Shown here: positions 921-61,386 of the stretch, piece after piece
Layout of the letters: each line of letters begins with the position of its first letter
How positions within the stretch are numbered: the first letter of the stretch is position 1
Assembly (NCBI GenBank): GCA_025361725.1
Contig: JANYJV010000073.1
Coordinates: 1,079-65,078, forward strand
Length of the DNA stretch: 64,000 nucleotides
Source of the DNA: Acidimicrobiia bacterium
GTDB taxonomy: Bacteria; Actinomycetota; Acidimicrobiia; IMCC26256; JAENVU01
Direction: 5' to 3'
Notes under the pieces: model-generated
Database searches by the model: none
Told to the model about the DNA's origin: nothing
What the model saw: only the letters and a program-made list of their open reading frames with translations
Made by a program: the position numbers and the translations under genes

Positions 921-2681
921 TCAGCGACGCGCGAACGTCGGGTCGCCGGAGAGGTACAGGATGTCGAAGGTCACGACGAACGAGTTGAACGTCGGCTGCG
1001 CAATGGTGTGGGCATCGACACAAGGATGCGGTACCGCAACACCGGCGCCGACCGAGGAACAGAAGGGCACCACCGTGCCGACCGTGGGCTGCACTGGATC
1101 GTTGTTCTTGTAGATCGTGGATCCATAGGCGTCCGCGGCGGCGGTGAGATTGTCGCCCTCACCGTTGAACGTGAACGTCAAACGCAACCGGATCGGATGG
1201 TTTGGGTCGTCATACCCCGGGAAGTCCGAGACGGTGGTCGCAGGCCCGGCGCACGGTCCGCCACAGAAGCTGCCATCGCCTTGGGTAATGACGATGGGCG
1301 CGCCGGGACCCGAATCGGGGAGCGTCACGGTCGCCGGGTTCGGCCCAGGGATCGTGATGGACCCACCGGGTGAGACGAAGCCCTTCGATACGCCTGGGGA
1401 TGGCGCTTCGACCGCAGTGGTTTCGTTCACGGTGGCGTTGCTGCCTGGTGTCGCAGTCGCCGAGTTGGTCATCGAACCGCCAGCGGGAACGGTGGCGGGA
1501 CTGGTCACCACCAGCGTGGCTTGGGCCGATCCACCAACGATCAATGCGCCGAGTGAACAGTCCACCGGCGCGGTGCCGGAGCATGAGTTGGGCGCAGAGG
1601 CGGTGACCAGGGTCGTGCCGGACGGCAGTGTGTCGAGGACATGTGCATCGGCCACCGGCGCGATGCCGTTGTTGGTGACAGTGAGGGCGTATTGAACGTC
1701 GTTGCCCGCGGTCACCGGATCGGGAGAGTCGGCGATCCTGACATCCAGGACCGGTGAAACCACGGTCGTCGACTCTGAGACAGCCGGAGCCTCACCGGGT
1801 GGCGCGCTGGCCGTGTTGACGATCTGTCCGCTGACGGGAACTGTTGTCGGGCTCGTCACCACGATGGTTGCGGTTGCGCTTCCGCCGCCGGGGATAGACC
1901 CGAGCGCGCAGGTGACGGATGTGGTTCCGATGCAGTTCCCGCTCGAACTCGCGGAGACGAGTGTTGCGCCGGGGAAGGCATCGGCCACGGACACGTTGGT
2001 CGCCGGCAACGTCGCGTTGTTCGTCACGGTCAGCTGGTAGGTGACATCACTCCCGGCCTGCACGGGATCCGGTCCGTCGGTGATGACGGTCGAGAGATGG
2101 TTCGAATGGCGCGTGAGGACTCTGAGCTCATCCATGACGGTCGGGGTGCGGACGTCGATCGAGACCGTTCGGCGATCGGTCGAGATCGTGAACTTGTCTT
2201 CGCTTTTCTCGAGCCCGCGTTGGACGGTGGAACCGGCGTACGTGGTGCCGGACGCACCGAGCGAATCGGTGGCAGCCAAACGCGCCGTCGACGCGATGAC
2301 GCCGATCACGTCGTCGGCGAAGGTCACGCTCCCGGTCCGCCGGCTGGTGGAACCGGAGGCGGTCGGGTCGCTGTGAATGAGGCTCGTGTCCAGGACGGTG
2401 CCGGCAGGAATCCGGGTGGTGCCGTTCGGGAATACCGTGTAGGTACCCGGATTGACTGCGTCAACGACAACCGCGCTGGCGAGGGTCACGCCCGAACGTT
2501 CGTCGAACGTGACGGCACTGGTGGCGTTTTCGAGCGCGTTCAGCGCGACTGATGGTGGCGGTGAGGAGAGTGTGATGACGCTGCCACTCGAACTCGATAT
2601 GAGCGCGCCGGCAACCGCAATCGTCGACGCCGCCATGACGATCGCGCCGCACACCGCAAGAAGTGCCTTCGAAGAACGCAT
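921..2681 (-). CDS. Secreted protein with two DUF11-type 'conserved repeat' domains and a C-terminal domain ending SGDPTFARR
   Basis: ATG at 2681 is preceded by GAAAGAGG. The signal peptide is MRSSKALLAVCGAIVMAASTIAVA. There are tandem repeats DVTYQLTVTNN...ATIVVTSPTTVP and DVQYALTVTNN...ATLVVTSPATVP. The long 5' extension of the 760-aa ORF overlaps the neighbouring gene and was discarded. Confidence 0.75.
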   Translation of the reverse strand: MRSSKALLAVCGAIVMAASTIAVAGALISSSSGSVITLSSPPPSVALNALENATSAVTFDERSGVTLASAVVVDAVNPGTYTVFPNGTTRIPAGTVLDTSLIHSDPTASGSTSRRTGSVTFADDVIGVIASTARLAATDSLGASGTTYAGSTVQRGLEKSEDKFTISTDRRTVSIDVRTPTVMDELRVLTRHSNHLSTVITDGPDPVQAGSDVTYQLTVTNNATLPATNVSVADAFPGATLVSASSSGNCIGTTSVTCALGSIPGGGSATATIVVTSPTTVPVSGQIVNTASAPPGEAPAVSESTTVVSPVLDVRIADSPDPVTAGNDVQYALTVTNNGIAPVADAHVLDTLPSGTTLVTASAPNSCSGTAPVDCSLGALIVGGSAQATLVVTSPATVPAGGSMTNSATATPGSNATVNETTAVEAPSPGVSKGFVSPGGSITIPGPNPATVTLPDSGPGAPIVITQGDGSFCGGPCAGPATTVSDFPGYDDPNHPIRLRLTFTFNGEGDNLTAAADAYGSTIYKNNDPVQPTVGTVVPFCSSVGAGVAVPHPCVDAHTIAQPTFNSFVVTFDILYLSGDPTFARR

Positions 2682-2820
2682 CTGCCCAACCTCTTTCGTC
2701 GCCCGCCCACGGGAACTCTCGTAGACCTTAGGCCCGTTCCTCAGGGTTTGTCCTATGACGACGGTTTCGACAAACTTGCTGACCGGAATCTGAGCCCGTG
2801 ACGCGACGAAGCTGCCGGAG

Positions 2821-4587
2821 TCAGCGGCGGGCAAACGTCGGGTCGTCGCGGCCAAAGACCTGCCACGTCGTGACCAGTTCGTTCGTCGCATTCGGCCGAG
2901 TGTTCTCGGACGCGATGCACCACGTCTCGCCGGCCGGAATCGTTGCGCTCGTAACGAGTCCCGCGTTGTCGAACTGAGGGGCGACACACCACTGGACCGG
3001 CCGGAAATTCGTTCCGCCGGTCGGGTCGTACTTGAGGAGCAGCGTGAATGCTCCAGAGCCGCCGACAACGGGTGCCGGGTCCGAGCCGAGGGTGACGAAG
3101 CCGCGGTAGTCGACCGTCGTTGCGCCCAACGGACGGAAGGACACCGTGCCCGCCGCAGCGGACGCGTCCAGCGCGTAGCGCTTGCAGTTGAACGTGTCGT
3201 CAAGGCGGGTGAACGAACCGGTCACCCCGCCGTCGGCGGCGGAGACGGTCTCGTTGCTGCAGATCGCCGGGAATACCGTCACCGTGACTGTGGCGACGTT
3301 GGAGCTCGCCGTACCGTCCGATGCGCGGTAGGTGAACGACGCCGGACCCGTGTAGCCGGGCGCCGGTGTCGCGGGAGGAGTGAAGGTCACGGTGCCATCG
3401 GCGTTCGCGACGACCGTCGAGCCCGCGGGACTAATACTGGCGAAGTCGCCGGGAACGAGCAAGTTGCCGTCGACGTCAGAGTCGTTGGCCAGCACGGGGA
3501 TCACCACGCTGCTCTTCTGGTTCACCTCGACGGTGTCGTCCTGGGCGACCGGTGCGTCGTTGACCGCAACGACGGTGATCCCGACGTTTGCGGTGGTGCT
3601 GGCGGCGCCGTCCGATGCGGCGTAACTGAACGAGTCTGGCCCGTTGTAGTTCGCGGCCGGCGTGTAGGTGAATGCTCCACTTGCCGCGAAAGACAGCGAG
3701 CCGTGGGACGGGCCGGTCACGAGTGCCGCGCTGAGCGGGTTGCCGTCGGAGTCGGAGTCGTTGGTGAGGACGTTGCCGGAGACCGGCGTGTCCTCCAGGG
3801 TCGTCACCGTGTCGTCGACGGCGGTGGGAGCTGCGTTCGACAGGAAGAACTGCGAATCGAAGTTGGGGTTGTTGGCGAAGTCATTGCTGCCCTCGAGCGA
3901 GACGGTCCCGATCGAGACTGTGGTGAGGGTCACCGTGTCGAAGTTGAAGCCGGGTTGCACGGTCCACTCGCAGTTGTCGTTCGGACCGTTGTTCGGTCCG
4001 GAACTGTTCGGTGCGGCGCAGGCGTCGGTCGTGTCACCCGGGCTGGAACTCGCAAAATACGGAGCGCTGGTGTCGTAGTCCGTCTCTGCAGCCTGAGGAG
4101 CCGTGATGGCAGTGCCGGTCTGGAGTTGGTAGACCGCGCTCGTCGCGCTGCTCGAGAGGGTGAGCTTGACCGTGGCGTTCCCGGTCATCTCGAGGTCGAG
4201 GCGCACGCCCGTGAACGTGCGGTTCGCGATGGCAGTGCCGGGCTTGAGCCGGAGGCTCTCGGTGCCGTCGACCTGGGAGCAGGGTGTTCCGTTGCCACTA
4301 CCCGGTGAGCCTTTGACGCCGATCGAATCGGAGCCCAATCCGGGTCCGGACTGGGTGCCGGTCGAGGTGAGGTGCATGACGGGCTCGGCCGAGTTGATCT
4401 TGCACGAGCTCGAGGCCGTGGTCAGCGACTGGGTCGTGGTCCCGTACTGGAAGTACCGACCGTCGCTCCCGAGATGCAGCCTGACGACGCTCGGCGCTGC
4501 GCCGCCGGCGGTGGCGAGCACGACTCCGGCCCCGGCCGTGACCAGCACCGTGACCAGCGCAAGTCGAAGAGATCGATTCCGGAACAT
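2821..4587 (-). CDS. Secreted protein with two cadherin-like/Ig-like tandem repeats and a C-terminal domain ending RDDPTFARR
   Basis: The signal peptide is MFRNRSLRLALVTVLVTAGAGVVLATA. The repeats are AVDDTVTTLEDTPVSGNVLTNDSDSDGNPL...FSYAASDG and AQDDTVEVNQ...LANDSDVDGN...FTYRASDG. Confidence 0.75.
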   Translation of the reverse strand: MFRNRSLRLALVTVLVTAGAGVVLATAGGAAPSVVRLHLGSDGRYFQYGTTTQSLTTASSSCKINSAEPVMHLTSTGTQSGPGLGSDSIGVKGSPGSGNGTPCSQVDGTESLRLKPGTAIANRTFTGVRLDLEMTGNATVKLTLSSSATSAVYQLQTGTAITAPQAAETDYDTSAPYFASSSPGDTTDACAAPNSSGPNNGPNDNCEWTVQPGFNFDTVTLTTVSIGTVSLEGSNDFANNPNFDSQFFLSNAAPTAVDDTVTTLEDTPVSGNVLTNDSDSDGNPLSAALVTGPSHGSLSFAASGAFTYTPAANYNGPDSFSYAASDGAASTTANVGITVVAVNDAPVAQDDTVEVNQKSSVVIPVLANDSDVDGNLLVPGDFASISPAGSTVVANADGTVTFTPPATPAPGYTGPASFTYRASDGTASSNVATVTVTVFPAICSNETVSAADGGVTGSFTRLDDTFNCKRYALDASAAAGTVSFRPLGATTVDYRGFVTLGSDPAPVVGGSGAFTLLLKYDPTGGTNFRPVQWCVAPQFDNAGLVTSATIPAGETWCIASENTRPNATNELVTTWQVFGRDDPTFARR

Positions 4588-5030: not shown

Positions 5031-5822
5031 TCAACCCTCGAAATCGCCGCCGCGCCCATGTTTCCAGTACCCACGGATGGTGCAGTGTGATCGCGGGATT
5101 CTGAGGGTCTCGAAGCAGTGTCGGCGAATTCGTTGCATGCTGGCCGCTTCTCCCGCCGCCCAGATCCGCGTGTCGGGATTGATGGGCGTGTCCTGCATCG
5201 CATCGACGAGTCGCGATCCCGGGAGGGCATCGTCGCCAAGATCGAGCCACGTGACGAGCGCGTCGGTGTGATCGGTGATCTGAGTGCGTGCGTCGGGTCG
5301 GGTCACTTCGACGAACACCCGCGCGTGGGCATGAACGGGGAGTCCACCGACCAGTTGGCGGATGGCCGGAACCGCTGATTCATCACCCGCGACGATGAAG
5401 TGAGTCGCAGAAGAGTCGACGGTGTACCCGCGTCCGGGTCCCGAAACCGCTGCGGGCGCGCCGACGATCGCTGCGGCCGCCCAGTTCGACGCAGGACCGT
5501 GGCCATGGATCACGACGTCGACGTCGAGTTCGAGCGCGACCGGGTCAAATGCGCGTGGCGTGAAGGTTCGGATCGTCGGCTTGCTGTCGTCGGGCAACAG
5601 GAACTCGTTCCCGCGCCAGGTGGGAATCACGAGGTCGGTTGCCGCTTCGCCGGGTATCAGCAGCCGCACACTTGCGGCGGGCTCGTCGGCCGTGAACCCA
5701 GCCAGCGCATCACCGCCGAGGGTGATACGCCGCAGCCACGGCGTGACCGATTCGGCGCGAATCACCGTGATGGATCGGAACGGTGGTGGCGATCGCCGAA
5801 CGCGCGGGGCGGTGGTGCTCAC
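5031..5822 (-). CDS. Siderophore-interacting protein (FAD-binding ferric-siderophore reductase family, ViuB/SIP-like)
   Basis: The translation contains PTIRTFTPRAFD (RxYT-like FAD motif), HGHGPASNWA, FIVAGDESAVPAI and a C-terminal YWKHG. The GTG start overlaps the upstream stop as GTGA. Confidence 0.8.
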   Translation of the reverse strand: MSTTAPRVRRSPPPFRSITVIRAESVTPWLRRITLGGDALAGFTADEPAASVRLLIPGEAATDLVIPTWRGNEFLLPDDSKPTIRTFTPRAFDPVALELDVDVVIHGHGPASNWAAAAIVGAPAAVSGPGRGYTVDSSATHFIVAGDESAVPAIRQLVGGLPVHAHARVFVEVTRPDARTQITDHTDALVTWLDLGDDALPGSRLVDAMQDTPINPDTRIWAAGEAASMQRIRRHCFETLRIPRSHCTIRGYWKHGRGGDFEG

Positions 5823-6367
5823 TTCTTCGGGTTCGCCGCCGCGAGTGCTGCGAACTGCCTGCGCACCGTCGCATCGTCGGGACGGTAGAGGAGCGTGGCC
5901 CTACCGGCCGGTGTGATGAAGACCCACGCCGGTTGACCCCGTACGCGGAACTTCTTCCAGACTTTGAGATCGAGGTCCGCGCCGTTCGGGAACGGCAGGT
6001 CGTACTTCTTCTCGAAGTCCACCATTGGGCCTTGGTCGTCGCGCCCAGAAATTCCGACGACCGCAAGGCGGTCTTGATACTGCCGCGCCAACTGCGCGAC
6101 TCCGGGAGCCTCCCGGTTGCACACCTCTCACCACGGCGCCCAGAACCAGAGCGCGAGCGACTTCCCTGCGTAGTCAGCACCGCGGATCTGCGGTCCGGTG
6201 ACGCCGGGCAGCGTGAAGTCGAGTGCGTCGGCAACGGGCGTCGCAGCAGGTGTCCCGTTGGTGCTCGGCACCGAGCTCTTAACGGTGACGCCTTTCTCCG
6301 ACCCGCCGCTCGACCCACACGCGGCGGTCAGGAGGACGGCGGCGACGAGACCCACGAGGCGGTGCAT
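5819..6367 (-). CDS. TlpA/ResA-like thiol:disulfide oxidoreductase lipoprotein, predicted selenoprotein (UGA at 6128-6130 read as Sec; active site W-A-P-W-U-E-V-C)
   Basis: The two ORF-track ORFs 6128..6367 and 5819..6124 are in the same frame, separated only by TGA. The lipobox is LLTAAC. The motif LALWFWAPW-[TGA]-EVCNREAP aligns with the canonical FWAxWCxxCxxExP redoxin motif. A hairpin lies 11 nt downstream. Confidence 0.75.
6102..6116 (-). promoter_or_regulatory. Putative bacterial SECIS hairpin for the redoxin UGA
   Basis: The RNA CCGGGA-GGC-UCCCGG forms a 6-bp stem with a G-containing loop. It starts exactly 11 nt 3' of UGA. Confidence 0.6.
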
Positions 6368-6514: not shown

Positions 6515-6907
6515 TCAACGCTCGACACCCGTTGCGGTCCGGAGCATTGACACGATCTCAGCGACGTCGAGGCGCTGCGCTGCAACGCGCATCACGAGGT
6601 CGTAGACGTCGGCATTCGAGGTGGTCGTCGCTCGCACGCCGTTGAGTTCCAAGAACACCGCGGTTGCCAGCCAACCCAATCTTTTGTTGCCGTCGACGAG
6701 CGCGTGATTGTTGACGATCGAGTCGAGGAGTGCGGCGGCCTTGGTCCAGAGATCGGGGTACGCATCGGCGGCGAACGCGGTGGCTTGGGGGCGGGCCACG
6801 GCCGATCCGAGGAGACCGAGGTCCCGAATCGGCGGAGGGTCGCCAAGGAGGAGGCGAGCGAGCTCCACCACGTCGTCCAGATCGAGGTACTCAATCCGGG
6901 GCGTCAC
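6515..6907 (-). CDS. doc: Doc-family (Fic fold) type II toxin
   Basis: The motif NHALVDGNKRLGW matches the Doc signature Hx[FL]x[DN]GNKR. The protein is 130 aa. The GTG start overlaps the antitoxin stop (GTGA). Confidence 0.85.
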   Translation of the reverse strand: MTPRIEYLDLDDVVELARLLLGDPPPIRDLGLLGSAVARPQATAFAADAYPDLWTKAAALLDSIVNNHALVDGNKRLGWLATAVFLELNGVRATTTSNADVYDLVMRVAAQRLDVAEIVSMLRTATGVER

Positions 6908-7107
6908 TGCCCCAATCGTTCGAGCGCGTCGGCGTGGGTGCGGATGACTCGACGCGCGGCGGCCGAGACGCGGTCTCGGTGCTGTCCGGCGGCGACGTAC
7001 GCGCGCACCGCTTGGCGGGCTGCGTCCTGGAGTGAGATTCCCTCCGCCGCAGCCCGTTCACGCAGCCCGGCTTGCTCGTCGTCGGTCAGTCGCAGCGTCA
7101 TGGCCAT
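6904..7107 (-). CDS. Ribbon-helix-helix (Phd/CopG-like) antitoxin
   Basis: The 67-aa product MAMTLRLTDDEQAGLRERAAAEGISLQDAARQAVRAYV has an RHH pattern and lies immediately upstream of doc, coupled to it. Confidence 0.75.
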   Translation of the reverse strand: MAMTLRLTDDEQAGLRERAAAEGISLQDAARQAVRAYVAAGQHRDRVSAAARRVIRTHADALERLGQ

Positions 7108-7120
7108 GAGGTGGATGGTA

Positions 7121-7849
7121 TCAGTCTGATACCAGCTGCTCGAAGAGGGCGAGGTGGTCGGGGCGGTGGCGGAGAAACTCGGGGTGCCACTGCACGCCGA
7201 GCACGTTGGTTGCGCCGTCGATCTCGATCCCCTCGACGTGACCCTGTTCGTTGTGCGCCACCGCGTGCACGCGGTCACCAAGTTCGTCGAGCACCTGATG
7301 GTGGAGCGTGTTCACGCCGAGGGTCTCGGTGCCGACGATTTTGGCCAGGCGCGAGTCCGGTTCGATGGTGACCGTGTGCGCGTCATGGTTGTACTGGTCG
7401 AGACGCATGTGATCGTCGACGTGCTGGTGCAATGTGCCGCCGAGCGCGACGTTCAGGATCTGGATACCCCGGCACACCGCGAGCGTGGGCTGATCGCGTG
7501 CAACAACCGCGCGCGCGATCGCGATGTCCGACGCGTCGCGCACGGGATCGAGCGGTCCGAGCTGTGGGTGCGGAGTCTGGCCGTACCCGGCCGGATCGAG
7601 GTCACGGCCGCCCGTGATCACGACTGCGTCGACCGCGTCGAGCAACGCCTCGACGTCGCTGGGATCGACGACGGGCAGGATCACCGGCACCCCACCGGCA
7701 CGTTGTACCGCCTTCACGTACGCGGTGGTGGCCATGTAGTGATCGACGGCGACACCCTCGTCGCCCCCGACCGCGGTGAGGTGCCCGACGATGCCGACGA
7801 CTCGTCCACGGACGCCGGTTTCGCTTCGCGCTTGCTCGGTGCGGTTCAT
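7121..7849 (-). CDS. Gamma-glutamyl-gamma-aminobutyrate hydrolase family protein (class I glutamine amidotransferase, peptidase C26, PuuD-like)
   Basis: The translation contains VVITGGRDLDP, the LAVCRGIQILNVALGG nucleophile elbow, and GVQWHPE. ATG at 7849. Confidence 0.85.
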   Translation of the reverse strand: MNRTEQARSETGVRGRVVGIVGHLTAVGGDEGVAVDHYMATTAYVKAVQRAGGVPVILPVVDPSDVEALLDAVDAVVITGGRDLDPAGYGQTPHPQLGPLDPVRDASDIAIARAVVARDQPTLAVCRGIQILNVALGGTLHQHVDDHMRLDQYNHDAHTVTIEPDSRLAKIVGTETLGVNTLHHQVLDELGDRVHAVAHNEQGHVEGIEIDGATNVLGVQWHPEFLRHRPDHLALFEQLVSD

Positions 7850-27977: not shown

Positions 27978-29570
27978 ATGGGCCTCTCCACGATGTTCCT
28001 CATCGTTGGGCTCGCCGGAGTTGCGTTCGCCGACAACGGCGACTCGACCGGAGCCAACACCGGTAACTCCAAGGATCAAATCGAATTGGTGACACCGGCG
28101 GGGAAGACCCCGGCCGCAACCAGCGACACGTTGCGCTCGACAGTCGCGAAAGACCACCTGGCGATCAACTACACGTGGTTGATGACCGGCGGGGTACTGG
28201 TCCTCTTCATGCAAGCCGGGTTCGCGCTCGTCGAGACCGGATTCACTCGAGCCAAGAACGCGGCGCACACGATGATGATGAACCTCGTCATCTTCGCGTT
28301 GGGAACCGTAGGTTGGTTCGTGTGCGGGTACGCGCTGATGTTCGGGTCGGTGTCGAATCCGGCGTTAGGAATCACTCCCCTCGGAACCGGTGCTCACTTG
28401 GGTGACTGGCAAGTCATCTCGCACTCCGGGTTCTTCCTCACCGGCCACGCATACGACGTTGGCATCCTCGCGTTCTTCTTCTTCCAACTCGTCTTCATGG
28501 ACGCGACGGCCACCATCCCGACGGGAGCAATGGCCGAGCGATTCAAGTTCTCGGGCTTCATCTGGTGGGGTCTGTTCGCCTCGATGATCCTGTACCCCGT
28601 CTACGGCAACTGGGTGTGGGGCGGAGGGTTCCTCTCGCAGCTCGGTGCGCTCGGACCGAAGTGGGGCCACGGCTCTTTGGACTTCGCCGGTTCCGGCGTG
28701 GTGCACGCCATGGGTGGCATCGCGGCGTTCTGGGGCGCCAAGATCCTCGGCGCTCGGATCGGGAAGTTCGACAAGGACGGCAAGCCGCGCGCCATCCCGG
28801 GTCACCACCTCCCGATGGCGTTCCTCGGCACGATGGTCCTGCTCGTCGGGTGGATGGGCTTCAACGGCGCCTCCACTTTCGGAGCCACCGACTTCCGCTT
28901 CACCATTGTGATCGTGAACACGATCCTCGCGGCGGCCTTCGGTTGTCTCACCACGATGTTCGTGATGTGGACGAAGTACGGCAAGCCCGATCCGTCGATG
29001 ACGTGCAACGGTCTGCTCGCAGGATTGGTGGCCATCACGGCGCCGTGCGCCTTCGTTGCACCCTGGGCGGCCGCAGTGATCGGCATCGTTGCCGGTGTCC
29101 TCGTGGTCGCTGCGGTGGTCTTTGTGGAACACAAGGCGAAGGTCGACGACCCGGTCGGGGCAGTTGCGGTCCACGGTGCCAACGGCCTCTGGGGCATGAT
29201 CGCCCTGGGTCTCTTCGCCGACGGTCGGTACGGCGACGGCGTCAACGGCGTTGCCGGTGGGGTCAAGGGTCTCCTGACCAACGGCGAAGCCGGCCAGCTC
29301 TGGGCGCAGCTCGCGTCAGTGGTGGTGGTGATCACATGGTGCTCCATCGCCTGCATCATCTTCTTCACGATCCTGAAGAAGGCCGGAGTCTTGCGGTCCG
29401 ACCCAGCGGCGGAGGTCGCAGGTCTCGACATGCCGGAGATGGGCGCACTCGCGTACCCGGACTTCCTCGAAGCCCAAGGCGCGGTCTTCTACACGACGGG
29501 TGGTTCCGCCCTCGTCGAACTCAAACCATCCGATGCAGCAGGTACGCGTGAAGAAGTGGGGGCGTCATGA
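27978..29570 (+). CDS. amt: Ammonium transporter
   Basis: The translation contains LFMQAGFALVETGFTRAKNAAH, DFAGSGVVHAMGG and GVAVHGANGLWG. The signal-peptide-like start MGLSTMFLIVGLAGVAFA is at 27978. In-frame upstream starts (27777, 27843) are possible. Confidence 0.9.
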   Translation: MGLSTMFLIVGLAGVAFADNGDSTGANTGNSKDQIELVTPAGKTPAATSDTLRSTVAKDHLAINYTWLMTGGVLVLFMQAGFALVETGFTRAKNAAHTMMMNLVIFALGTVGWFVCGYALMFGSVSNPALGITPLGTGAHLGDWQVISHSGFFLTGHAYDVGILAFFFFQLVFMDATATIPTGAMAERFKFSGFIWWGLFASMILYPVYGNWVWGGGFLSQLGALGPKWGHGSLDFAGSGVVHAMGGIAAFWGAKILGARIGKFDKDGKPRAIPGHHLPMAFLGTMVLLVGWMGFNGASTFGATDFRFTIVIVNTILAAAFGCLTTMFVMWTKYGKPDPSMTCNGLLAGLVAITAPCAFVAPWAAAVIGIVAGVLVVAAVVFVEHKAKVDDPVGAVAVHGANGLWGMIALGLFADGRYGDGVNGVAGGVKGLLTNGEAGQLWAQLASVVVVITWCSIACIIFFTILKKAGVLRSDPAAEVAGLDMPEMGALAYPDFLEAQGAVFYTTGGSALVELKPSDAAGTREEVGAS

Positions 29571-50066: not shown

Positions 50067-50792
50067 ATGGCAACTCTTCCCACCAGCGGATCACCCGTTT
50101 ACTGCTCCGGCCCGATGTTCAGCGTCGGCGATCTGAACGAACAGGCTCAGGTCGCCGCCGCGCTCGAGGCGGCGAACTTCACCACCTATCTGCCCCAACG
50201 CGACGGCATCGAGGTCGGCAAGGTGATGGGGGACATCAACAGCGGTCTCGACCTCCCGATGAGCGAGATCCTCGAGATCATGACGTTCGTCCGCAAGATC
50301 GTGTTCGCCCTCGACGTGTACCAACTCGTCGAGCGATGCGAGTCCCTGGTCTTCAACATGGACGGTCGGGTTCCCGACGACGGCAGCGTCGTCGAGACGG
50401 CCATGGCATTCGCAGCCGGCAAGCCGATCGTGATCTACAAGACGACGCCGATCTCGATGCTCGGCGGTTTCGACAATCCGATGGTGCAGGGTCTGTCGAC
50501 CACCTGGCAGTACGTCTCCGACGTCGCCCAAGTTCCGGCGGCAGTGTCGGCCGCCGTTGCGGCCACCGCCGCGCTGCAAGGCACGTCCTTCGTCGCCGGT
50601 CCGCACCTCGATGCGGTGCTGAAGCTCGGTGCGGCCGTGTGGGGACTGGTGCCCGAGATGCACGCCGCGAGCAACGACACCCCGGCGCAGCTCTACGCGG
50701 CGGTCCAGGGGCTCGAGCAGGTGCTCGGACCGTTGGTGGCAGCCGCCGACGGCGACCCTGCGCCGCCATCCGCGCCGGCGAAAGCGTCCTAG
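50067..50792 (+). CDS. Nucleoside 2-deoxyribosyltransferase-like (NDT/Rcl fold) protein with an Ala-rich C-terminal extension
   Basis: The translation contains VYCSGPMFSVGDLNEQ...YLPQRDG and PDDGSVVETAMAFAAGKPIVIY, which resembles the family's catalytic Glu context. Confidence 0.65.
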   Translation: MATLPTSGSPVYCSGPMFSVGDLNEQAQVAAALEAANFTTYLPQRDGIEVGKVMGDINSGLDLPMSEILEIMTFVRKIVFALDVYQLVERCESLVFNMDGRVPDDGSVVETAMAFAAGKPIVIYKTTPISMLGGFDNPMVQGLSTTWQYVSDVAQVPAAVSAAVAATAALQGTSFVAGPHLDAVLKLGAAVWGLVPEMHAASNDTPAQLYAAVQGLEQVLGPLVAAADGDPAPPSAPAKAS

Positions 50793-56851: not shown

Positions 56852-57379
56852 CTACCGCTCGGAGTCTGCCCCCGTGATGGACGCCACGATGTCTTCGATG
56901 GCCGAATCTGCGAGCGCGCGCATCTCGTCGTCGGTGCGATCTTGGATCGGATGCGGCACGAAGATCACCGCCGGGTCGGCGCCCAGAGCGCGCGCTTGAG
57001 CGGCGGCGGCGTCGATGAACTCGGTGGAGGCGAGGAACACGCCCGCGACGCCGACCGCTTCGAGGTTCACGATGTCGTGCACACTGCACGACGTACACGA
57101 GCCTCAGTCGGCGAGGGCTTCGATCACCACGTCGCACTTGGCCGAGATCTCGTGACGGAGATCGATGGGCGCCGGTTTGGTGAACGTGGGCTTGGCGAAA
57201 CGAAGCACGGTGTGGCCGCGCCGTTCCAGATGCTCGGCGACGCGGTCGAGGAAGACATCGCCGCGCGCTTTGGTGATGTCCAACAGGCCGATCGTCTTGC
57301 CGTCCAGGCTGGACGGGCGCGGCGCCCGCTCTCGGGTCCCCGGTGCGCGTTCACTGGTGGGATCGAGCAGTGTGGTCAT
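56852..57379 (-). CDS. UGSC-motif (UxxCxxC) selenoprotein (UGA at 57104-57106 read as Sec)
   Basis: ORFs 57104..57379 and 56852..57082 are in one frame (528 nt). The translation across the junction is EALAD-[TGA]-GSCTSCSVHDIV. A perfect 8-bp hairpin lies 11 nt downstream. The ATG overlaps the upstream stop (ATGA). Confidence 0.75.
57074..57092 (-). promoter_or_regulatory. Putative bacterial SECIS hairpin for the UGSC UGA
   Basis: The RNA GUCGUGCA-GUG-UGCACGAC forms an 8-bp perfect stem with a G/U loop. It starts exactly 11 nt 3' of UGA. Confidence 0.65.
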
Positions 57380-60047: not shown

Positions 60048-60713
60048 TTACGCGTCGGCGAGTTCGGCATCCTCGGTAGTACTGCTGTGTTCCTCGGCAT
60101 ACCAGCGGGGCCGATGCTGCGCGGCCCACGCGGTCGACACCGTTCCCCGGGTCATGCCTCGGAACGACTCGAAATCTCGAAAGGCCAGGACGATGTGGCC
60201 GAACACGGTGATCCAGATCAACCAACCGAACCATTGGTGCACGAAGTCGGCGCCGGTGCGGGTGTCGGTCCCGAAGGCCTGATTCCAGTACATGATGGAG
60301 CCGGTGAAGCCCAACACGATGGCGGCGGCGCCGACGAATACCGCGTTGAGCTTCTGACCCGGATTGAACTTGCCGAGGCGCACCGTGTCGTCACGTCCGC
60401 GTGATCGGAACCAGCGGACATCGTCGCTCGACCACCGGTTGATCCGGCTCAGGTCGCGACGGAGCGAGCGCCCCCAGCGCGGGCCGACCGCGACGGCGAA
60501 GGCCACGAGGATTCCGAGCCCGGAGTAGACGTGCACGGCGCGTACCAGGGCGCGATCCGACAACAGCGATTGGCCAAAGCCGAAATAGAACATCGCGCCG
60601 GTCGCCATCGTGATCGTGAAGAGCACCGCGTTCACCCAGTGCGCGATGCGTTCCACTTTCGTGAAACGCGCGACCCGCACGGCGGGATCAGGTTGTTTCA
60701 TCGTTGCGTCCAT
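60048..60713 (-). CDS. Cytochrome b (Ni_hydr_CYTB/MsrQ-like) membrane protein
   Basis: The translation contains RFTKVERIAHWVNAVLF and VHVYSG, with 4 TM helices carrying conserved His. Confidence 0.7.
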   Translation of the reverse strand: MDATMKQPDPAVRVARFTKVERIAHWVNAVLFTITMATGAMFYFGFGQSLLSDRALVRAVHVYSGLGILVAFAVAVGPRWGRSLRRDLSRINRWSSDDVRWFRSRGRDDTVRLGKFNPGQKLNAVFVGAAAIVLGFTGSIMYWNQAFGTDTRTGADFVHQWFGWLIWITVFGHIVLAFRDFESFRGMTRGTVSTAWAAQHRPRWYAEEHSSTTEDAELADA

Positions 60714-61386
60714 TCGATCGTCCGACCCACGCGTCGATCGAGTAGCCGCGTTCCTCCCAGTATCCGGGGATGACCTTGTCGACGACCTCGATGCCGTCGA
60801 GCCACTTCACCGACTTGTACCCGTACATCGGTGCGACGTACAAGCGGACCGGACCGCCGTGGTCACTCGAGATCGGCTTGCGATCGAGCTGGTACGCGAC
60901 CATCACGTCCTTCCGGCGGGCTTGCTCCATCGTCAAGCTCTCGGTGTACGCACCGTCGAAGCTGGTCAAGCGCAGGGCGCGGGCATGGGGTTGCACACCG
61001 GCGCGATCGAGGAGGTCGGACAGCCGTACGCCTTGCCACTTCACGCCGAGCACCCGCCAGCCGGTGACGCACTGGAAGTCACGGTCGAGTCGGGTCGGCG
61101 GTAGCGCCACGAGCTCGTCGTAGGTGAGGGTCAACGGCGTATCGACGAGTCCGTGGACCTTCAGGCGGTAGTCCGCGGTCGGGCGTTTCGGGTAGTCGCC
61201 GGTCACCGTGTAATAGCGCCATCCGCCGCCGCCCGGGAAGACCGCACTGAGTCCGGTCGGGTCGCGTTTGGCGAGCTGCTGCCACCAGTTCGAGATTGTC
61301 GAACCGGTTGCCACGCCGACGGCGCCGACACCGACGAGGCCGAGAAAAACGCGGCGACCGATCGGAGTGCCGGGCTCGTTCGTCAC
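60688..61386 (-). CDS. Tat-exported molybdopterin-dependent oxidoreductase (sulfite-oxidase/MsrP fold, short form)
   Basis: The Tat signal is GRRVFLGLVGVGAVG. The translation contains DFQCVTGWRVLGVKWQGVRL and GYKSVKWL. Confidence 0.75.
   Translation of the reverse strand: MTNEPGTPIGRRVFLGLVGVGAVGVATGSTISNWWQQLAKRDPTGLSAVFPGGGGWRYYTVTGDYPKRPTADYRLKVHGLVDTPLTLTYDELVALPPTRLDRDFQCVTGWRVLGVKWQGVRLSDLLDRAGVQPHARALRLTSFDGAYTESLTMEQARRKDVMVAYQLDRKPISSDHGGPVRLYVAPMYGYKSVKWLDGIEVVDKVIPGYWEERGYSIDAWVGRSNGRNDETT

Follow-up and report, generated by a model that had tools for sequence, protein, structure and literature searches.

The locus at 5819..6367

We analysed a stretch of 64,000 nucleotides (nt) from contig JANYJV010000073.1 of an Acidimicrobiia bacterium (assembly GCA_025361725.1), hereafter the window. 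At 5819..6367 on the minus strand it holds a redoxin gene interrupted by an in-frame TGA. This is very probably one functional gene for a selenoprotein, a predicted membrane-anchored thiol-disulfide redox protein with selenocysteine (Sec) at the UGA. Direct translation of 6367..5819 (-) gives 183 codons in one frame, that is 182 codons and a TGA stop, and the sole internal stop is the TGA at 6130-6128. In the list of open reading frames (ORFs), 6128..6367 and 5819..6124 have this frame in common. An initial annotation, made from the sequence alone, had taken the two as one frame split by a lone TGA, and both the coordinates and the translation agree with it. The sequence is 66% GC. The GC content at third codon positions (GC3) is 0.84 before the UGA and 0.79 after it in the same frame, so both halves look coding.

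The N-terminus of the product is MHRLVGLVAAVLLTAAC, which reads as a signal peptide with a lipobox (MHRLVGLVAAVLLTAA-C17; LTAA-C17) at 6317..6367 (-), the codon of Cys17 being 6319-6317. Export and lipidation are predicted from the sequence pattern, and to this extent the read-through product is a predicted lipoprotein, as the initial annotation had it. The active site, U80-E-V-C83, lies at 6119..6130 (-) and its UGA codon at 6130-6128, with LALWFWAPW directly before the stop and EVCNREAPGV directly after it.

With the stop replaced by Cys, the product matches PF00578 (AhpC-TSA) at 63 bits against a cut-off of 26, PF08534 (Redoxin) at 35.9 against 26.6 and PF13905 (Thioredoxin_8) at 35.9 against 27. 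Its best solved relatives are Mycobacterium tuberculosis MPT53/DsbE (1LU4, E 5.7e-25) and DsbF (3IOS, E 7e-22), and ResA chains of the PDB (about 1e-12) and TlpA (5e-6) come behind them. Named matches in the protein database include MPT53 and protein disulfide oxidoreductase. As for the curated equivalog models of NCBIfam, the product stays below the cut-offs of ResA (57.9 vs 170), TlpA (31.8 vs 230) and DsbE (28 vs 123.15). These Pfam and PDB sequence matches assign it to the thioredoxin-fold, TlpA-like proteins, in the DsbE(MPT53)/DsbF branch. The earlier label of a TlpA/ResA-like protein therefore holds for the fold and not for the family, the closest proteins being actinobacterial DsbE (MPT53) and DsbF.

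Conservation of the UGA codon and of the downstream frame

The genome-derived set of homologues combines a scan of one genome per species (80 loci) with five further contigs (L001-L005), those of the half-proteins that were the closest matches in a protein search, and the window. A codon census of this set finds TGA at this exact codon in 38 loci with 34 distinct sequences, some in genome assemblies and some on short metagenome contigs; 32 of these loci come from the species-representative scan. The carriers are Acidimicrobiia, Nitriliruptorales, Euzebya, other uncultured Actinomycetota and the isolate Salinilacustrithrix flava (EGI L10123), and their proteins are 33-76% identical to that of the window. 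Carrier sequences include the S. flava genome NZ_CP133888.1, the 4.87-Mb Acidimicrobiia contig JAWPMS010000001.1 and the metagenome-assembled genomes GCA_043724125.1 and GCA_031422675.1; in S. flava the active site reads WFWAPW-U-TSCIR. At the same codon a further 46 loci carry TGC or TGT (Cys); these belong to Mycobacterium, Lentzea, Streptomyces and others. In a scan of JGI metagenomes the TGA form was found in 44 of 80 loci, which brings the total to 82 with the genome-derived ones. On L001-L005 the same in-frame TGA is present in independent ENA, Logan and NCBI assemblies.

Alignment with homologues, the check that the initial annotation had proposed, places a Cys opposite the UGA, which thus aligns with the first Cys of WFWAPW-C-xx-C, the position in the CxxC motif that it had named. 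Around the UGA, W74-W79, C83, N84 and E86 are invariant, and further on Q145, P146 and A147 (the Q-P-A cis-Pro region) are invariant across Sec and Cys homologues. Of the 38 genome-derived Sec-form loci, 32 encode a lipobox, as do many Cys-form homologues.

Downstream of the TGA, every one of the 38 genome-derived loci has an open frame of 99-103 codons (one of 125), and the corresponding length in Cys forms is 96-105. The 44 metagenome Sec forms have equal downstream lengths wherever the contig reaches. Among the window and four relatives, dN/dS (the ratio of nonsynonymous to synonymous substitution rates) over the 102 codons after the UGA is 0.07-0.19 at dS 0.26-1.1, and it is similar before the UGA. 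Since dN/dS is low after the UGA, the downstream half appears to be translated in this frame.

In a neighbour-joining tree the Sec forms fall into a single large clade, within which a few Cys forms (P0003, P0006) branch, and the Cys forms of mycobacterial type make up a separate, all-Cys clade. A Sec clade with few nested Cys forms is the usual pattern of selenoproteins. The position of P0003 and P0006 suggests secondary replacement of Sec by Cys. P0003 comes from a 1.8-Mb ENA contig and shares 64% identity with the window protein, to whose subclade it is sister. Another ENA contig, P0084 (538 nt), carries an ORF of 125 amino acids in which a GalT-like N-terminus (PF01087) is joined to the last ~55 redoxin residues, from NGADLDL; this is either a deletion variant or a chimeric assembly.

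RNA hairpins downstream of the UGA

Two hairpins follow the UGA on the minus strand. Hairpin 1, CCGGGA-GGC-UCCCGG, lies at 6102..6116 (+12..+26 after the UGA); it starts 11 nt after the UGA and its loop (GGC) begins at +18. Hairpin 2, GUCGCGC-AGUUG-GCGCGGC, lies at 6082..6100 (+28..+46), with its loop (AGUUG) from +35. The initial annotation had described hairpin 1 at this spacing, and we locate it at 6116..6102, held by codon choice in UGA forms only. The second hairpin, which comes after it, is the better conserved. According to the bSECISearch criteria, a bacterial selenocysteine insertion sequence (SECIS) has a stem-loop just after the UGA, an apical loop 16-37 nt away and a G early in the loop; the loops of both hairpins agree with this description. 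Neither the window nor the recoding region has a match among Rfam families, even with E values of up to 10 allowed.

Taken alone, the hairpin is weak evidence, because 20 of the 1493 TGA trinucleotides of the window (1.3%) precede a perfect hairpin of at least 6 base pairs (bp) at that spacing and because its folding energy is not exceptional. Folding energy does not discriminate at 66% GC, and we therefore relied on codon choice and on pair counts in a fixed register.

In terms of the recoding region, the Sec forms split into three sequence groups. In the CNREAP group, to which the window belongs, hairpin 1 occupies +12..+26 and hairpin 2 occupies +28..+46. In the CQGAAP group hairpin 1 has another sequence, CAGGGG-GCGG-CCCCUG, and lies at +10..+25, whereas hairpin 2 is the same. 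The third group forms only one hairpin, at +20..+37, and its GGUC loop is invariant.

The full 5-bp stem of hairpin 1 is found in 12 of 13 CNREAP Sec forms and in none of 20 Cys forms with the identical R-E-A-P peptide. The codons differ accordingly: the Sec group of the window uses CGG, GCU and CCC, and the Cys forms use mostly CGC and GCG with CCC or CCG. The full stem of hairpin 2 is present in 24 of 34 Sec forms, as against 0 of 46 Cys forms. When all loci are counted, 38 of 72 Sec forms vs 0 of 79 Cys forms have a perfect hairpin of 6 bp or more that starts at +9..+13.

The fixed-register counts point the same way. In hairpin 1 a C:G pair changes to U:A in 4 sequences and 96% of the cells are paired. 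Hairpin 2, with 51 distinct sequences, has its five core pairs 92-100% paired and compensatory double changes at 6 of 8 pairs, and none of 500 shuffles reached its pairing values. The hairpin of the third group behaves like hairpin 2 in its pair counts. Synonymous divergence is also reduced, with dS 0.27 over codons 4-16 (the 13 hairpin codons) vs 0.93 in the rest of the downstream half, which is 3.4-fold lower. From these comparative data, the finding lies far beyond chance.

We lean slightly towards hairpin 1, over hairpin 2, as the SelB-binding element of the SECIS, because its 11-nt spacing and short, G-first loop are shared with the hairpin of a second UGA gene of the window, described below. 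Hairpin 2 is conserved more widely than hairpin 1 and may belong to the same recoding signal.

A second UGA gene and the probable use of selenocysteine in this genome

The window was also scanned for in-frame TGAs flanked by coding sequence. This revealed a gene of the UGSC family of (seleno)proteins at 56852..57379 (-), with its UGA at 57106-57104. Its read-through product scores 154.9 bits with NCBIfam NF041046 (cut-off 125) and 152.9 bits with Pfam PF24696, and the UGA is the U of ALAD-U-GSC. A perfect hairpin of 8 bp, GUCGUGCA-GUG-UGCACGAC, lies at 57092-57074 (-) and starts 11 nt after the UGA. Gene callers split the gene into ORFs of 91 and 76 amino acids. It adjoins an unannotated ORF of 491 amino acids and serC. 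The split gene is also present in the NCBI metagenome-assembled genome GCA_043724125.1 and in several metagenomes. Two other UGA candidates, at 28394 and 36112, were dropped under stricter frame criteria.

UGA is the commonest stop codon of the window, where it ends 38 of 60 high-GC3 ORFs, and it has therefore not been reassigned across the genome. Two independent selenoprotein-type UGA genes share the one window, from which we infer that the organism decodes Sec; it is the UGSC-family gene that points, indirectly, to Sec use by this genome. Complete Sec machinery has been reported for Actinomarina, another Acidimicrobiia lineage (bioRxiv 10.64898/2026.04.03.716425).

Counter-evidence and rival explanations

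Several observations weigh against a selenoprotein gene. A tRNA-Sec was sought with ARAGORN in the window and 34 related loci and not found, and tblastn with E. coli SelA, SelD and SelB finds no selA, selD or selB in the 64-kb window or in 165 loci. In all, about 2 Mb of related loci gave no tRNA-Sec, selA, selB or selD. That no sel gene lies in the window is expected for a 64-kb piece of a genome. PDB 8uzw and 3u0o served to validate the SelA and SelD probes, and the best 120 of 8000 matches of E. coli SelA in the protein database are all enterobacterial; weak SelB-like tblastn matches proved to be the GTPase TypA/BipA, not selB. On the RNA side, the folding energy of the hairpin (z = -1.48) is unexceptional, and Sec and Cys forms differ with p = 0.027 in minimum free energy and p = 0.13 in best-hairpin energy. 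The contrasts between Sec and Cys hairpins are not phylogenetically independent, with an effect that is large and consistent. Finally, the support for the gene consists of sequence data.

Four other explanations were weighed. If a nonsense mutation had struck a Cys-type redoxin gene and its downstream half were decaying, gene callers would yield two ORFs, as they do, and public protein sets would hold fragments alone, as is the case; Sec machinery was, moreover, not found within the window. Such a pseudogene is at odds with a TGA at the same codon in 82 loci at identities down to 33%, with the lack of any further stop or frameshift and a downstream dN/dS of 0.07-0.19, and with hairpins conserved specifically in UGA forms. 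Because the UGA is conserved, the downstream frame intact and selection purifying, we treat a pseudogene as excluded, its probability being vanishingly small; decay, which the initial annotation had named as a refutation, is contradicted by the same data. An error of sequencing or assembly can be dismissed outright, the feature being identical in independent ENA, Logan, NCBI and JGI assemblies.

The gene might instead give two products, a 79-residue lipopeptide ending at the UGA and a 101-residue cytoplasmic fragment from GTG 6124. This GTG, 3 nt after the UGA, is indeed taken as a start by ORF finders, but it is the Val codon of U-E-V-C. The split would part the redox residues and deprive the C-terminal thioredoxin-fold half of an export signal, and it leaves unexplained why the break is always at the Cys codon and why the downstream hairpins are selected; we consider it extremely improbable. 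Lastly, a near-cognate tRNA (Trp, Cys or Arg) might read the UGA without selenium, stimulated by RNA structure. Downstream hairpins can stimulate ordinary read-through too, and the Sec machinery was not directly observed. However, the UGA is at the position of the catalytic nucleophile, where Cys or Sec alone is workable, the alternation of UGA and Cys is the signature of selenoproteins, and the window also holds a member of a curated selenoprotein family that shares this UGA-hairpin geometry. Read-through of this kind is very improbable. A single selenoprotein gene thus carries by far the greatest weight in our assessment.

Proposed mechanism

The genetic steps of the selenoprotein model are well supported by comparative evidence, and the biochemical steps are drawn from homology. 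From the anatomy of the gene, the ribosome would meet the UGA at 6130-6128 as the mRNA 3' of it folds into hairpin 1 and then hairpin 2. SelB-GTP carrying Sec-tRNA(Sec) would bind the bacterial SECIS (6116-6082), and Sec would be inserted in place of termination. The precursor of 182 residues, judging by its signal sequence, would then be exported, lipidated at Cys17 and tethered on the outer face of the cytoplasmic membrane.

By homology, the tethered thioredoxin-fold domain, with the active site W-U-E-V-C, would carry out thiol-disulfide exchange on exported proteins. The selenolate of Sec80 would be the attacking nucleophile, and Cys83 would resolve the reaction through a selenenylsulfide. 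Selenenylsulfides have lower potentials than disulfides, and for this reason our guess is that the protein acts as a reductant or isomerase rather than as a pure oxidant.

Annotation and significance

None of the 164 homologues that a collection of 5.8 billion proteins yielded contains U. The Sec forms are present in this collection as fragments only, which either end at ...WFWAPW or begin just after the UGA, and the redoxin copy of S. flava itself is not in it. The gene is mis-annotated wherever we checked. Recognising the Sec clade would correct the annotation in many Actinomycetota genomes.

The redoxin is a new and so far unannotated addition to the known UxxC thioredoxin-fold selenoproteins, the type most common among predicted selenoproteins. 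Whether this is also the first recognition of a large, ancestrally Sec-containing clade of DsbE/DsbF-type lipoproteins with a two-hairpin SECIS is a claim we put forward tentatively, at a little below an even chance. That clade may span Acidimicrobiia, Nitriliruptoria and other uncultured Actinomycetota; it would count more than 80 loci, among them that of the cultured S. flava. If so, extracytoplasmic thiol-disulfide chemistry would be partly selenium-dependent in mostly aerobic environmental actinobacteria, and Sec use would reach lineages for which the literature searched reports none. S. flava is a cultured carrier, and selenium incorporation is therefore directly testable.

In either case, the two selenoprotein genes of the window add evidence for selenocysteine use in Acidimicrobiia and related classes. 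Our understanding of selenoprotein function is unchanged, and a selenoprotein specialist would find the result real, tidy and unsurprising.

Neighbouring genes and other features of the window

Downstream of the redoxin gene lies a siderophore-interacting / FAD_binding_9 gene at 5031..5822 (-), whose GTG start has 4 nt in common with the redoxin stop (GTGA). Pfam FAD_binding_9 and SIP were matched on the syntenic genes of L001-L005. The overlap suggests an operon, in the clade of the window only, and the pairing is not kept in other Sec-form groups. By group, the neighbours are FAD_binding_9/SIP in the clade of the window, a MauE-like membrane protein in S. flava and PPK2 in another group. No partner gene conserved across the family was found among the neighbours compared across Sec-form groups, and the neighbours indicate no specific pathway.

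Directly upstream, the window (6515..7281, -) and L002 have a DOC/Fic toxin gene preceded by a small ORF. In L001, L004 and L005, which are close relatives, this place is taken by a divergent MerR regulator; the junction is a variable spot. In S. flava (L041, 10441..11028, +), the gene of the MauE-family membrane protein lies directly 3' of the Sec redoxin, a pairing like that of MauD and MauE. On L020 (9013..9795, +) a second redoxin paralogue is found just upstream of the Sec form.

Elsewhere in the window, ARAGORN calls a 78-nt tRNA-Ser(cga) at 50122..50199 (-). Rfam detects none at this site with E values of up to 1 allowed, and the call sits inside a high-GC3 ORF of the opposite strand (50067..50792, +); it is probably a false positive. 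Two large repeat proteins of cadherin/Big_9 type, at 921..3203 (-) and 2821..4587 (-), have a common C-terminal motif, ...[GD]DPTFARR, which could be a shared sorting or anchoring signal. At 60048..61386 (-), a cytochrome b subunit like that of formate dehydrogenase gamma adjoins a fragment of a SorA/MsrP-like molybdoenzyme, in an MsrPQ-like arrangement in which every score is under the curated cut-offs.

Comparison with known systems

The E. coli fdhF SECIS consists, in its minimal form, of an upper stem-loop that lies 11 nt beyond the UGA and whose apical loop contains G/U. Hairpin 1 resembles it in its 11-nt spacing and G-first loop, and a GGUC tetraloop occurs in one group of the family. 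Hairpin 1 and the fdhF element are not similar in sequence, and in the group of the window a second conserved hairpin follows directly, unlike in fdhF.

The ResA, TlpA and CcmG(DsbE) reductases have in common with the window protein a TlpA-like fold and a membrane-tethered, extracytoplasmic topology, although the protein is under all three curated cut-offs. No cytochrome-maturation gene was found among the immediate redoxin neighbours scanned. The ResA-like WAxxUGC (seleno)protein family NF041054 likewise has a Sec-containing, ResA-like redoxin domain. It differs in its motif, U-G-C as against WFWAPW-U-EVC here, and in length, its model having 354 positions and the window protein 182 residues; the redoxin scores 20.7 against its cut-off of 300.

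The UxxC thioredoxin-fold selenoprotein families are alike in fold, in the PF00578 match and in Sec at the N-terminal position of UxxC. They are defined by a PF00578 or cd02966 domain together with a UxxC motif (PMC13188914), and the redoxin, with PF00578 and UxxC, belongs to them by this definition; their reference sequences are WP_010940744.1 and MGB1650493.1. These families have been described mainly from Deltaproteobacteria and marine metagenomes (PMC1794560). The literature on UxxC selenoprotein families that we searched makes no mention of an actinobacterial clade of DsbE/DsbF type.

The closest characterised systems are DsbE (MPT53, Rv2878c) and DsbF (Rv1677) of M. tuberculosis. These share with the window protein the motif W-F-W-x-P-W-C-x-x-C-N-x-E-A-P, the Q-P-A cis-Pro region, the size and the extracytoplasmic location, and DsbF is also a lipoprotein. 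The mycobacterial proteins have been characterised as oxidants. They are ~40% identical to the window protein and have Cys in place of Sec, so that the family of the M. tuberculosis antigens MPT53 and DsbF would contain a natural Sec/Cys pair.

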